A stretch of 63,029 bases of DNA from an uncultured Thermoplasmatales archaeon (GCA_964384785.1 CAYLLH010000112.1:1-63029), one strand, 5' to 3'; shown: positions 57,212 through 60,651, numbered from the stretch's first letter. The notes: generated by a model not told the origin, from the sequence alone. Numbers and translations: made by a program.

Positions 57212-57778
57212 TTAAATTTTTTTGTCCCAGAACCCTTTGGTTTTTTTATGATATGGAAAATCCCAGACTGATTCGTCAAGACCTTTGTGAGCTGTTTTTT
57301 TGATAAAGGTTCCACCCTGATGGTCATCTTTTAAACTCAAAAAATAAATAGCTTTTTTGGGTTTTAAAACAGAGAAAACACTGTCATTTATGTAATAATA
57401 GGGTACTCTCCTGCGGGTAATTATTATTTTGTTGAATCTTTGTTTACGTGTTTCAACTATTTTATAAAAAATTTTACTATGATCAAATTTTTTTCCTTGA
57501 CTGTTAAGTTTTCTTTTGAATTTCCAGAATCGTATAATATGATAAAAATTTCTTATTTTTGTAAAAAACCATTTACAGGTTTTATAAAAATATTTTGTAA
57601 TTTTTTTTTGAAACAAAGATAATAGTTTTTCTATTGAATGATTCTGATTCTTTTTTTTAGGTGTAGAAGTATAACTAGGTTGATCAAATGTTTTGTTTTT
57701 TTTATTTTGATCATTTGTTTCTGTATATTCTATACCCATTCCAAACATTCGAAGATCTTTTAGTTCTTTTTCATCCAA
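57212..57778 (-). CDS. Highly basic hypothetical protein
   Basis: 188 aa. K/R/F/Y-rich with no recognisable motif. Confidence 0.45.
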   Translation of the reverse strand: MDEKELKDLRMFGMGIEYTETNDQNKKNKTFDQPSYTSTPKKKNQNHSIEKLLSLFQKKITKYFYKTCKWFFTKIRNFYHIIRFWKFKRKLNSQGKKFDHSKIFYKIVETRKQRFNKIIITRRRVPYYYINDSVFSVLKPKKAIYFLSLKDDHQGGTFIKKTAHKGLDESVWDFPYHKKTKGFWDKKI

Positions 57779-58079
57779 AAGAAAAACACCCTAAGAATTT
57801 TTTTTAAAAATTTGACAGTTTTTTTTGTTTATTCTCTTTTGTATTCCTTCAGGGATCCGTCGTCTTTTTCTTCAAATAATGGTATCTGTAATGGTTTTGT
57901 AAATGTGTATTTATTTTTTTTTCCCATCGTCTACCCTCACGCCTAGAAAACCTATATTGAAATAGTGTTTAAAAAACAATCGAAATATATCAAAAGCAAA
58001 AGTATTTAGGTGAGTTGTTTTTCCCAAACTTTTATTTAGGGGTTACAACAATCCGGAGGGTTCGGGAGTAATTTTAAAT

Positions 58080-59420
58080 ATGGAAAATGATGATGATCTT
58101 TCACGTCTTGGTGTTATACCATCGGATCGTAAAAAACTAGAAAACATGGGTATTACAAAACTTGAACAAATTGCTTTGATGTCTGTTAAAACACTTGGTA
58201 TGGGTACTAGCAAGGGTAATACTTTGATTCAACGAGCCAGAAATATTCTTGCTAATGAAAACATTCTTGATATTACTATTAAAAATGAGGATCTTATAGA
58301 GGTTAAGGTTCGTAGTACTAACCGTGCGGTTAAAAAATCTGTTCTTAATTTGTTAAATGTTTATAATGCTGGTTGGGGTAATGCTTCTCTTGAGGCGCAT
58401 GGGAATATTATGAAGCTTAGTCGTAATTCTCAGAAGTTTGATCAGGTTTTAAAACAAGCTGAGGGTCTTCAGGAGATTATTGATTCACGTAAGATTGAGG
58501 AGAAAGAAAAAAAGGGTATTTTTCTTCCGGATGATGAACTTCGTGAGTTTGCAAAAGAACGTGGTTTTGATGGTTTTTGGGAGAATGTTTTTCAGGAGAT
58601 CCATGGTAATGATATTATGAAAAAAGTGATTGCCACTAGTATGTTTTCTACTTTTGAAGAACCAGTTCATTCACTTGTAATTGGTGAACCTGGTAGTAGT
58701 AAGACTATGGCTATGGAGCTTATAACTGAGCAGTTCACAGGTATTTCAAATGTGGGTGCTAACACTACCAGATCAGGCTTGGTTTGCAATCTTGGAACTG
58801 GTGATCTTGGAGCGCTTCCTCATTCAGATAACAAAATAGTTCTAGTAGATGAGTTTGATAAAATACCTGGTGATGATATAGAGTACTGTTACGAGCTCTT
58901 ATCTAATGGTAAATGTAGTGTTCATTCAGCTAAAATCCATAAAAACATTCAAAGTCATTTTATAATGATAGCTTTTGCAAATCCAAAGACCAAGGTTTTT
59001 GGAAAAAACGCTATCTCTGATATAGGTTTATCGCCACTGCTTATGAGTCGTTGTGCTCTTGTTGTAAAAGTACAAAATATTGATCGTGAAGAACGACTTG
59101 AGCTTTTTAAAAAGAAATTCTATGGAAACACAGAGTTTAAAGAAAAACATGATTATTATGATCAATGGGTGAAACTCGCTCGAGATTTCACACCAGAGAT
59201 AGATGCAACTGAAGAAAAAATAGATGAATACATCAAAACAATAAACAATATTGTTGAGGATCATTACAACACAAATCTTCGACGTGATCTGCGTATGACA
59301 GAGTATATTCGCCGGATTCCTATGGCTATAGCACGTGCTTCTTTTAAAAACATAGATGATTCAGTTATAGATGAGTCATTAGATTTAATTAGACAATCCA
59401 TTGAAACATGGAATAAATAA
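58080..59420 (+). CDS. MCM-family AAA+ ATPase core fused to an N-terminal RadA-N-like helix-hairpin-helix domain; lacks the canonical MCM N-terminal domain
   Basis: 446 aa.
- The N-terminus 'LSRLGVIPSDRKKLENMGITKLEQIALMSVKTL..GNTLIQRARNIL' resembles the RadA N-terminal HhH.
- Walker A 'GEPGSSKT' and Walker B 'VLVDEFDKI' (MCM 'IDEFDKM').
- 'IMIAFANP' is the sensor-1 block and 'LMSRCALVV' parallels 'LSRFDLIF'.
- 'EYIRRIPMAIARA' is sensor-2-like. Confidence 0.75.
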   Translation: MENDDDLSRLGVIPSDRKKLENMGITKLEQIALMSVKTLGMGTSKGNTLIQRARNILANENILDITIKNEDLIEVKVRSTNRAVKKSVLNLLNVYNAGWGNASLEAHGNIMKLSRNSQKFDQVLKQAEGLQEIIDSRKIEEKEKKGIFLPDDELREFAKERGFDGFWENVFQEIHGNDIMKKVIATSMFSTFEEPVHSLVIGEPGSSKTMAMELITEQFTGISNVGANTTRSGLVCNLGTGDLGALPHSDNKIVLVDEFDKIPGDDIEYCYELLSNGKCSVHSAKIHKNIQSHFIMIAFANPKTKVFGKNAISDIGLSPLLMSRCALVVKVQNIDREERLELFKKKFYGNTEFKEKHDYYDQWVKLARDFTPEIDATEEKIDEYIKTINNIVEDHYNTNLRRDLRMTEYIRRIPMAIARASFKNIDDSVIDESLDLIRQSIETWNK

Positions 59421-59442
59421 AAAACAAAAAAACAATTTTTTT

Positions 59443-59706
59443 TTATTTTATACTTTTAAACATGTGTTTTCTTATTTCATTAAGGCTTTCTTCGACTCTT
59501 CTTTTAGCATCATCTTTTGAGATTGGTTCATAAAAATCGTTTTCACCAGAAGAATCGATACCTGCTACAATAAATTCATTGTTTTTTTTATAAACACAAG
59601 CTTGATTTTTAAAGGCTTTTTTGTAATGAAGGATTGGTCCTAAAAAAGTCCAACCTTTGCTTCTTAGTTTTTCATCTATTTTATCTATTTCATTTTTTTT
59701 ATCCAT
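59443..59706 (-). CDS. Hypothetical small protein
   Basis: 87 aa from ATG 59706 (the track TTG 59718 is upstream). No motif recognised. Confidence 0.4.
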   Translation of the reverse strand: MDKKNEIDKIDEKLRSKGWTFLGPILHYKKAFKNQACVYKKNNEFIVAGIDSSGENDFYEPISKDDAKRRVEESLNEIRKHMFKSIK

Positions 59707-59781
59707 AATTAAAATCAAACCCTTTGTTTCCTAAATTTTTTTTTGGAAATCAGGAAGATAACAAATTAATATCTTTTTTTT

Positions 59782-59913
59782 TTAAATTTCCTTTAATTCT
59801 TCATCTGTCCAAAATTTTATCTCGGTTCCATCAGGTAAAACCGCGATTTTAACTATTTCACCAGTTTCAGGGTCTTTTTCTTCTTTAAACCTTGTTCCTT
59901 TTGGAAAATTCAT
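59782..59913 (-). CDS. Hypothetical 43-aa protein
   Basis: Below the track cutoff. 'MNFPKGTRFKEEKDPETGEIVKIAVLPDGTEIKFWTDEELKEI'. GAGGT lies about 9 nt upstream of the ATG. Confidence 0.35.
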   Translation of the reverse strand: MNFPKGTRFKEEKDPETGEIVKIAVLPDGTEIKFWTDEELKEI

Positions 59914-60102
59914 CTTGCCGTTACCTCAAAAAAAAATTTTACGGTAGATTATTTTTTCATCCGGGTAAATATCTTCATAATTTAAAAACCCATCTGAAAA
60001 AAATTAGTTTACATGTTTATTCATGTGCTATGTTTTTTGCATATGCAGATGAATATTCTATAGATATGTGTAAAGGTAGATTCAATATAAATCTGGTTTT
60101 TT

Positions 60103-60327
60103 TTATAGTCTGCCTTTGTTTTCAATCCATGCTGTGTCAATATCTCTTCTTAGATTTGTGGGTAAATTTGGTGTACAGTCATGTAGGATTCCGTTTTCAT
60201 CCTCCCACCAAATTTTTTCTTCAGAAGATTCATTGGTAAGAGTATTTTTTATATATGCCCAGACTTCACTTTTTACATGTTCTTTATCTGGGTTGGTTTT
60301 TTTATAAAATTTTATTGCATATGTCAA
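60103..60327 (-). CDS. Hypothetical small protein
   Basis: ORF 60103..60336. A strong GGGGAGGT site (complement of 60337-60344) sits 9 nt upstream of the second in-frame TTG (60327), which favours that start. Confidence 0.45.
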   Translation of the reverse strand: MTYAIKFYKKTNPDKEHVKSEVWAYIKNTLTNESSEEKIWWEDENGILHDCTPNLPTNLRRDIDTAWIENKGRL

Positions 60328-60445
60328 AAAGATCAAACCTCCCCGATGAGGTAGTTTAAAAACAGTATATACTGATATAAAAATTTATCTGTTTTTTTTT
60401 GATTATTTCGGTTTTTTAAAGAAAAATTTGTAAAATAAATTTTTT

Positions 60446-60550
60446 TTAGTAGTATGTTACATAAAGGTAGATTACATATATTACAAGTATTCCAAACATA
60501 CCGAGAAGGATTAATGTTTTTGCGAAATTGATTTTTACCTCGTCGACCAT
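60446..60550 (-). CDS. 34-aa single-TM mini-protein downstream of dnaJ
   Basis: 'MVDEVKINFAKTLILLGMFGILVIYVIYLYVTYY'. GGAGG lies 10 nt upstream of the ATG. Same strand as dnaJ. Confidence 0.35.
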   Translation of the reverse strand: MVDEVKINFAKTLILLGMFGILVIYVIYLYVTYY

Positions 60551-60651
60551 ATTTTTTTGTTCCTCCAATTAAACATTTTGTTTTTTGTGTTTAAAAGGAG
60601 TTGTTGTACAACTATTATCGACGTTCTTTACAGTTGTTACCCATTTGTTTT

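Follow-up and report, generated by a model that had tools for sequence, protein, structure and literature searches.

Genes at the Locus

The stretch of DNA analyzed here, contig CAYLLH010000112.1:1-63029 of assembly GCA_964384785.1, comes from an uncultured Thermoplasmatales archaeon and is 63,029 nucleotides (nt) long; we refer to it in its entirety as the window. The genome to which it belongs comprises 1.62 Mb in 112 contigs and is 87.7% complete. Between 57.2 and 60.4 kb, in the interval from a radical-SAM gene to dnaJ, the window contains a gene for a short AAA+ ATPase of 446 amino acids (aa), in which a core of the MCM type follows a helix-hairpin-helix (HhH) head. This gene and its product, called the ATPase below, are the subject of this analysis, together with the family of orthologs to which they belong. 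Its neighbors are a gene for a very basic 188-aa protein and several smaller genes, all on the opposite strand (table 1). An initial annotation, which was made from the sequence alone, had read the segment as an islet that could be the remnant of a decayed mobile element.

An MCM-Type ATPase Core

The ATPase core belongs to the MCM clade and not to the Mg-chelatase or Lon groups of AAA+ proteins. The Pfam MCM P-loop model (PF00493), which has a curated cut-off of 23.3 bits, matches residues 154-338 with 57 bits (E 2e-15; profile positions 5-211 of 224), and a search across the window's own genome returned 58.7 bits for the same protein; the Mg-chelatase model reached only E 0.034. A profile built from 11 orthologs and searched against the PDB sequences gave 65 matches, and among the matches listed 60 of 60 were MCM2-9 or archaeal MCMs. 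Structural comparisons were based on an AlphaFold2 model obtained from the family alignment, with a mean predicted local distance difference test score (pLDDT) of 88.7 and a predicted template modeling score (pTM) of 0.77. The best 50 Foldseek matches of this model in the PDB were all MCM subunits. With VIA, Z scores of 22.8-28.7 were found to 11 MCM entries, with MCM8/9 and the MCM homolog of M. kandleri among them, as against 15.3-17.3 for RavA, BchI, BrxL, ComM, and MoxR (RavA 17.3, BchI 17.2, BrxL 16.9, and ComM 16.1).

The MCM motifs to which the initial annotation had drawn attention are present and are invariant among orthologs. They are GEPGSSKT (Walker A, K208), VLVDEFDK (Walker B, D257/E258), AFANP (sensor 1, N301), LMSRC (arginine finger, R324), and LRRDLRM (sensor 2, R401/R402). 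Across 18 members of the family, with identities of 32-77%, the residues K208, D257/E258, N301, S323-R324, and R402 are invariant and R401 is nearly so. In a profile alignment, residues 193-436 pair with residues 331-592 of the S. solfataricus protein (SsoMCM), and the catalytic residues align to the SsoMCM motifs. The ATPase tier holds every MCM catalytic residue, sensor 2 and the trans-acting arginine finger among them. The pre-sensor-1 hairpin is also kept (residues 278-291), with strands at 278-282 and 287-291 in the model and, at its tip, K285, a position occupied by Lys or Arg in 15 of the 18 members.

Two elements of the tier are shortened. At the helix-2 insert the ATPase has two 4-residue gaps relative to SsoMCM, and gaps of 6 and 4 residues relative to the genome's own MCM; the latter comparison shows two further gaps, of 2 and 8 residues, upstream of Walker A at the external hairpin, a site of deletion relative to SsoMCM as well. 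The protein stops at residue 446, right after the helical lid, and no C-terminal winged helix is present in the open reading frame (ORF), the model, or the structural alignment.

The N-Terminal Head and Linker

The initial annotation stated that the canonical N-terminal domain of MCM, with its oligonucleotide/oligosaccharide-binding (OB) fold and zinc motif, is missing from this protein, and the structural data bear this out: within residues 1-170 the model contains neither an OB fold nor a zinc motif, and none was matched among the structure hits listed. The protein begins instead with a head of four short helices and one long helix, which reached a pLDDT of 91.6 when modeled alone. Its VIA Z scores were 9.4 to the C-terminal domain of AF1548, 8.4 to NusA AR2, 8.1 to PolQ, 7.5 to the N-terminal domain of Rad51 (Rad51-N), and 7.0 to that of RAD51C. 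In a profile-profile comparison (hhalign), the head matched residues 16-65 of the genome's own RadA with a probability of 75% (E 2.5e-5; 30% identity). Within the family L20 is invariant, and G24 and L39 come close to being so. With the Pfam HhH models, single members give E 0.005-0.06, which we take as sub-threshold. By its modeled fold the head is an (HhH)2 domain, for which the original description as RadA-N-like is a fair one, with RadA not being the unique best match.

The head is followed by a small domain whose best structural matches are weak (ACT-like or EIIB-like; Z 5.0-5.9) and by two long linker helices. From about residue 145 onward, the C-terminal part of the linker pairs with the pre-AAA region of MCMs, and the structural alignments begin at residues 141-150. 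Some family members vary in this part of the protein. In P0131 and P0125 a Cys/His-rich insert separates the alpha/beta domain from the linker helix, and Pfam labels that of P0131 as B-box-like; P0138 begins with some 290 aa that are unrelated.

Relation to the Canonical MCM

The same genome also has a canonical MCM of 701 aa, encoded on contig 19, with which the ATPase shares 24% identity over the core. Against NF040949, the NCBIfam model for canonical MCM, the ATPase scores 32.4 bits versus a cut-off of 940, and the match is confined to positions 325-479 of 682. In an exhaustive profile search of 1.84 billion representatives, about 20 full-length clusters of the family were found at 265 bits or more; below them the scores dropped across a gap to about 100 bits for short MCM-like proteins and 60-80 bits for canonical MCMs.

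We examined the relationship further in a tree of the core domain, which is unrooted (midpoint only), comes from a quick search, and has long branches, such that it does not establish the order of events. In this tree the family is monophyletic, with a Shimodaira-Hasegawa-like approximate likelihood ratio (SH-aLRT) support of 100, and sits on a long stem of 1.37. Together with six short MCM-like proteins and a single protein of 609 aa it forms a group (SH-aLRT 99) distinct from 83 MCM-like rows (65 full-length and 18 short) that include the genome's own MCM and hold nearly all full-length MCMs in the tree. The protein is thus not placed among the canonical cellular MCMs. The short MCM-like proteins that group with the family (P0172, P0163, and P0202) occur in mixed contexts, chromosomal-looking and ORFan-rich, and the origin of the family is not settled by them. 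In a protein-language-model look-up, which we treat as a lead only, viral short MCM-like clusters were nearest after the family's own cluster.

Other MCM-like or AAA+ genes were encountered in relatives. The congener G002 has a third MCM-like frame of 681 aa (G002:C61:2683-3585), 24% identical over residues 147-416, which may be an extra, element-borne MCM. Frames for AAA+ proteins of about 300-314 aa (G011:C1:26499-27200, G020:C92:2028-2720, G016:C9:7271-7972, and G006:C1:624772-625167) match residues 190-436 weakly, at E 1e-6 to 4e-4; they are a family other than the short ATPase.

Distribution and Inheritance

Full-length orthologs of the ATPase, with identities of 56-97%, are found in 17 of the 24 genomes of the window's family and in 7 of the 8 genomes of a sister family. 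All genomes in this set also carry a canonical MCM match: the ATPase accompanies the replicative MCM and does not replace it. A sample of 401 genomes from the phylum Thermoplasmatota yielded the ATPase in three related families of one class (35/53, 4/4, and 12/12 genomes) and in the single genome of another class (1/1), and it was not found in the roughly 330 other genomes of that sample. Presence and absence are consistent by genus (e.g., 12/12 and 9/9 vs. 0/3).

The divergence of the ATPase follows that of the cellular MCM. Across 13 genomes, the ATPase is 58-97% identical to the window's protein, with a corresponding range of 68-97% for the canonical MCMs of those genomes, and over the 91 pairs formed by 14 genomes the identities of the two proteins correlate with a Pearson/Mantel r of 0.91 (0 of 5000 permutations as high), a value that shows co-divergence and not a probability, since kin are not independent. 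The ratio of nonsynonymous to synonymous change per site (pN/pS) of the ATPase gene is 0.21, with synonymous change near saturation. It is therefore very likely that the gene is intact and that it represents a lineage-specific family inherited chromosomally in uncultured sediment Thermoplasmatota.

In the databases the orthologs are named "hypothetical protein" or "Mcm2" and the organism labels are those of metagenome-assembled genomes (MAGs) of a "Thermoplasmat-" archaeon, including SM1-50. We take "Thermoplasmatales archaeon SM1-50" to lie, probably, within the Thermoprofundales/MBG-D. Thermoprofundales is the current name for the lineage known as MBG-D/DHVEG-1 (PMC9585477). The literature that we searched for an HhH-MCM fusion or for MCM paralogs in MBG-D describes mobile-element MCMs, BcMCM, and Cch, and holds no description of this family.

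Genomic Context in Relatives

We surveyed the context of the gene at 80 species-level loci. In about 30 of these it forms part of the arrangement HD-eIF1A-Rio1 kinase-KH protein-ATPase-NAD synthase (NadE), on one strand and with short gaps (about 54 nt between the KH gene and the ATPase gene, with NadE 11 nt further on). In a second group of loci the ATPase gene lies downstream of a divergently oriented gene for an HflX-like GTPase. It is followed in the sister family by genes for an M54 peptidase and a methyltransferase, and in another family it stands between a gene for a haloacid dehalogenase-like (HAD) hydrolase and a thioredoxin-reductase-like gene; adenylate kinase-archease is also among the housekeeping neighbors of other loci. 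Housekeeping contexts of these kinds surround the ATPase gene in about 70 other species, and no integrase was found near members of the Thermoplasmatota clade in the loci surveyed.

The window's genome has the HD-eIF1A-Rio1-KH cluster on contig 96 and NadE on contig 61, from which we conclude that the ATPase gene was relocated in the window's genus. There it occupies the segment from the radical-SAM gene to dnaJ. The initial annotation had raised the question whether this segment is absent from close relatives; it is present and syntenic, small genes included, in three congeners (G001-G003), and is arranged differently in a fourth (G004).

Divergent members of the family are found in other surroundings. 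The P0140 cluster, a divergent branch from MAGs labeled Nitrososphaerota, always occurs in a module of four genes, for a helix-turn-helix (HTH) protein, a 340-aa protein, the ATPase, and a 255-aa tyrosine recombinase. Of the contigs that bear it (L111-L114; e.g., L112:767-4347) the majority break off at about 4.4-4.7 kb and one extends into chromosomal genes, and we regard the module as a candidate small integrated element. Members of the P0139 cluster lie between McrBC and a CARF-HTH gene (L115:3322-15724 and L118:1300-15333), in the vicinity of the toxin-antitoxin pairs MazE-PIN and HEPN-nucleotidyltransferase and of a type III CRISPR system (Csm/RAMP and Cas6). A third deep branch (P0141) resides in an operon of uncharacterized genes and has a weak match to BrxL (E 2e-6). 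Finally, a MAG labeled Dehalococcoidia encodes a full-length family member with 39% identity (L110:3513-4898; PWTP01000144.1). A small PNPOx gene separates it from a 525-aa sigma-70 (rpoD-like) gene, relative to which it lies downstream and in divergent orientation. This copy looks like an archaeon-to-bacterium transfer; a chimeric contig is less likely.

Neighboring Genes in the Window

The basic 188-aa protein has homologs with conserved end motifs, and its pN/pS is 0.63-0.79. Relatives of this protein are encoded in 15 of the 61 genomes of the window's family, some of them from genera without the ATPase. The two genes adjoin in three genera (g1, g7, and g14), with orientations that differ between genera. 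Obligate coupling of the two genes was considered and rejected, the basic gene being present in ATPase-less genera and unlinked in g5. Just upstream of the basic gene, on the same strand, a 32-aa micro-protein is encoded in every case examined (the window, G001-G003, and G017). It has the core FTKPxQIPLFEExDDGxL and near-saturated synonymous change.

On the other side of the ATPase gene are three further conserved small genes. The 43-aa protein is 100% identical in the nearest genome, and both it and the 32-aa protein are under strong purifying selection (pN/pS 0.12-0.31 for the two). The 74-77-aa protein likely starts at the TTG at 60327, which lies 9 nt behind the Shine-Dalgarno sequence GGGGAGGT (60337-60344, minus strand), a site that the initial annotation had rightly picked out. 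That annotation was also right about the basic protein and the presence of small ORFs, and erred in placing the latter on alternating strands, since the conserved small ORFs are all on the minus strand and the plus-strand ORFs that overlie them are antisense shadows, as exemplified by the plus-strand ORFs of 44-108 aa over the 32-aa gene at 57829-57927. The 188-, 91-, 77-, 43-, and 32-aa proteins had no significant match in Pfam, NCBIfam, PADLOC, or PHROG.

The window was also searched for signs of a mobile element. A tRNA scan found no tRNA in the window, no integrase is encoded among its ORFs, and the search for att repeats around the region returned AT-rich imperfect matches only, in agreement with the initial annotation on all three counts. 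There is no compositional step, and the guanine plus cytosine (GC) content of the region resembles that of its surroundings. The small neighbors are real, ordinary, genus-specific chromosomal genes and not the remains of a mobile element.

Table 1. The ATPase gene, the parts of its product, and the neighboring small genes, with positions in the window.
Feature	Position	Strand	Evidence
HhH-headed short MCM-family AAA+ ATPase gene, 446 aa	58080..59420	+	ORF, Pfam MCM, Foldseek, VIA, pN/pS
(HhH)2 head, RadA/Rad51-N-like, residues 3-60	58086..58259	+	Model (pLDDT >88), VIA, hhalign
Small beta-beta-alpha-beta-beta domain, residues 62-115	58263..58424	+	Confident model
Two long linker helices, residues 120-170	58437..58589	+	Model
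MCM-type AAA+ core, residues 178-340	58611..59099	+	Invariant columns, alignments to SsoMCM and the genome's own MCM, model
Helical lid with sensor-2 R401/R402, residues 341-442	59100..59405	+	Alignment to SsoMCM lid to residue 436; structural alignment to residue 446
Very basic 188-aa protein, divergent neighbor	57212..57778	-	Homologs with 28-85% identity and conserved motifs
32-aa conserved micro-protein	57829..57927	-	69-100% identity in four other genomes of two genera; pN/pS 0.13-0.31
91-aa conserved small protein, convergent with the ATPase gene	59443..59718	-	54-97% identity, syntenic in G001-G003; pN/pS 0.30-0.58
43-aa conserved small protein	59782..59913	-	70-100% identity in three congeners; pN/pS 0.12-0.27
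74-77-aa conserved small protein	60103..60336	-	46-87% identity in three congeners; pN/pS 0.33-0.47
40-aa single-pass membrane mini-ORF, downstream of dnaJ	60446..60568	-	92% identity, nearest congener only

Possible Function of the ATPase

We favor the hypothesis, to which we assign a probability of roughly 60%, that the protein is a lineage-specific chromosomal ATPase of the MCM type that works as a ring-shaped DNA translocase or remodeler. That it serves in DNA repair or recombination is a narrower proposal, to which we give a little less than even odds. The subunits would assemble into a ring, probably a hexamer, by way of the MCM-type inter-subunit ATP site. DNA would be contacted by the pre-sensor-1 hairpins in the pore and by the HhH heads, which may grip the sugar-phosphate backbone without sequence specificity, and ATP would drive movement along the DNA or its remodeling. 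An archaeal MCM deprived of its helix-2 insert reportedly does not unwind DNA, although DNA binding and ATPase activity are kept. Given this report and the shortened insert of the ATPase, translocation or remodeling would be expected over unwinding. Its activity might then be double-strand translocation, branch migration, or remodeling in recombination, repair, or fork restart, as opposed to bulk replicative unwinding. As functional parallels we propose eukaryotic MCM8/9 or the combination of RuvA (HhH) with RuvB (AAA+).

Several observations weigh against this hypothesis. Ring formation, DNA binding, and a role in repair are all deduced from homology, and HhH domains can mediate protein-protein contact, as in NusA AR2, which scores as well as Rad51-N. 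The most conserved neighbors of the gene are concerned with translation and ribosome biogenesis and not with DNA repair. Moreover, about one-third of the genomes in the window's own family lack the ATPase, consistently by genus (e.g., 0/3 in g18 and 0/2 in each of g6, g39, and g42), and the eIF1A-Rio1-KH cluster is intact in five ATPase-less genomes from five genera, including g18, g6, and g39. Because the gene is absent by genus, and because the cluster is intact in genomes without it, the ATPase is dispensable. The deepest members of the family lie in defense islands or beside an integrase, outside housekeeping contexts, and the window's protein itself has a weak match to the PADLOC candidate system PDC-M37B (E 1.4e-7), restricted to residues 246-396.

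These last observations lead to the alternative that survives best, unlikely as it is in our judgment, namely that the ATPase is an anti-virus protein, stand-alone or dependent on a partner, which in the manner of BrxL or PDC-M37B loads on foreign DNA and blocks its replication. The position of the P0139 cluster between McrBC and CARF genes, near toxin-antitoxin and type III CRISPR genes, would fit such a role, as would the matches of P0141 to BrxL and of the window's protein to PDC-M37B, the MCM-like fold of the BrxL ATPase, and a patchy presence by genus of the kind typical of accessory genes. However, the Thermoplasmatota clade has no conserved partner gene or defense neighborhood, and it is conserved, and co-diverges with MCM, far more tightly than defense genes usually do. 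The PADLOC matches, limited to a portion of the AAA+ core, fall well short of the MCM matches in strength, and PADLOC gave no BrxL match for the window's protein. No defense partner genes were seen near the window's ATPase gene, the composition of PDC-M37 systems not having been checked.

We consider it slightly less probable that the ATPase acts on RNA or on a ribonucleoprotein, for example in maturation of the small ribosomal subunit or in translation initiation, with the HhH head as a protein or RNA module. Such a role is suggested by the gene's place after eIF1A, Rio1 kinase, and a Dim2/Pno1-like KH protein on the same strand in about 30 species, and by the resemblance of the head to the NusA AR protein-interaction domains, which equals its resemblance to Rad51-N. 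To our knowledge, however, all characterized members of the MCM clade act on DNA. Furthermore, the linkage to eIF1A-Rio1-KH was lost in the window's genus and in other families that kept the gene, and the cluster is intact in genomes that lack it. In archaea, moreover, genes for replication are frequently found embedded in groups of translation genes, according to PMC2643942.

Less probable again is a part in chromosome replication, be it as a second replicative helicase or as an initiator or loader that binds the origin. In favor of this, the MCM ATPase tier is complete, and there are reportedly archaeal orders with several MCM copies. Yet the OB/zinc tier and the winged helix are missing, the helix-2 insert is shortened, the NCBIfam score is 32 bits against a cut-off of 940, a canonical MCM is retained in every genome examined, and the gene is dispensable in many genera.

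Least probable, and largely refuted for the window locus, is the proposal of the initial annotation that 57.2-60.4 kb is a decayed integrated plasmid or provirus with the ATPase as its replication helicase or initiator: archaeal mobile elements often recruit MCM genes (as stated in a passage of PMC6563490, citing Krupovic 2010, Kazlauskas 2016), several small genes of the segment have no family match, the ATPase gene has gone from the eIF1A-Rio1-KH slot on contig 96, and a divergent branch sits in a tyrosine-recombinase module, but integrase, tRNA, and att repeats were not found in the window, its GC content shows no break, the segment is syntenic in G001-G003 with small genes under purifying selection, the ATPase and the cellular MCM diverge in step over 14 genomes, its contexts elsewhere are housekeeping ones, and some genera without the ATPase also have the basic 188-aa gene.

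The mobile-element idea is retained only as a possible remote origin of the family, and a remote mobile or defense origin followed by domestication is plausible. If so, the chromosomal translocase or remodeler that we favor could be an independently evolved, nonreplicative MCM motor for recombination or fork repair in Thermoprofundales-like archaea, an analog of MCM8/9 that arose by fusion of a RadA-type (HhH)2 head to an MCM tier captured from a mobile or defense element and was then domesticated. We offer this fuller scenario tentatively and think it rather doubtful as a whole.

Comparison with Known Systems

The ATPase is closest to the ATPase tier of MCMs (P. furiosus 4R7Z, M. acidophilum 8Q67, S. 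solfataricus 6MII/3F9V, and Mcm2-7), with which it shares the core and the lid over 266-295 aligned residues at the Z scores of 22.8-28.7 reported above. The likeness extends to Walker A and B, sensor 1, the SR arginine finger, sensor 2, and the pre-sensor-1 hairpin. Unlike these MCMs, it has no N-terminal helical/zinc/OB tier and no winged helix, and its helix-2 insert and external hairpin are each about 8-10 residues shorter.

Shorter MCM-like proteins are known from mobile elements and defense systems. BcMCM, from a Bacillus cereus prophage, is a short MCM-like helicase of a mobile element (PMC2715239). In BcMCM, in Cch of the staphylococcal SCCmec (5DGK), and in the viral family PHROG 10371 the N-terminal tier is likewise replaced; the window's protein matches PHROG 10371 at E 3.7e-22 and is structurally distant from Cch (Z 9.2). 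Unlike the genes of these elements, the ATPase gene belongs to the chromosome, is passed on vertically, and has housekeeping surroundings, with no primase or integrase fused or linked to it. BrxL of the bacteriophage exclusion (BREX) system and PDC-M37B share an MCM-like AAA+ fold with the ATPase and give weak profile matches to part of its core; unlike BrxL, the ATPase lacks a Lon-like protease domain, and partner genes, whether of BREX or of another system, were not seen.

Eukaryotic MCM8 and MCM9 (7WI7 and 8S91) reach Z 23.7-26.6, and MCM9 also gives a sequence match (E 7.9e-6). MCM8/9 are motors of the MCM clade outside the replicative helicase and act in recombination repair. They retain the canonical OB/zinc N-terminal tier, unlike the ATPase, and the parallel that we suggest would be one of function, with no orthology implied. 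The head has its own counterpart in the N-terminal domain of RadA/Rad51, which has the same (HhH)2 fold and is joined there to a RecA-fold core and here to an AAA+ motor; other (HhH)2 domains, as noted, score as well as Rad51 or better.

In archaea and eukaryotes the core motor of replication is MCM, and MCM8/9, BrxL, and the helicases of mobile elements show that its ATPase tier has been redeployed. One family, that of the window's ATPase, documents both sides of an exchange between the chromosome and mobile or defense elements. Its hosts are among the most abundant uncultured archaeal groups of sediments, and its database label "Mcm2" is misleading. The 446-aa representative is compact, has a confident model, and should lend itself readily to expression; with it one could probe directly how an MCM ring behaves when the OB/zinc tier and the helix-2 insert are missing. 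Beside these known systems, the family stands as a strongly conserved chromosomal redeployment of the MCM tier with a new head domain.

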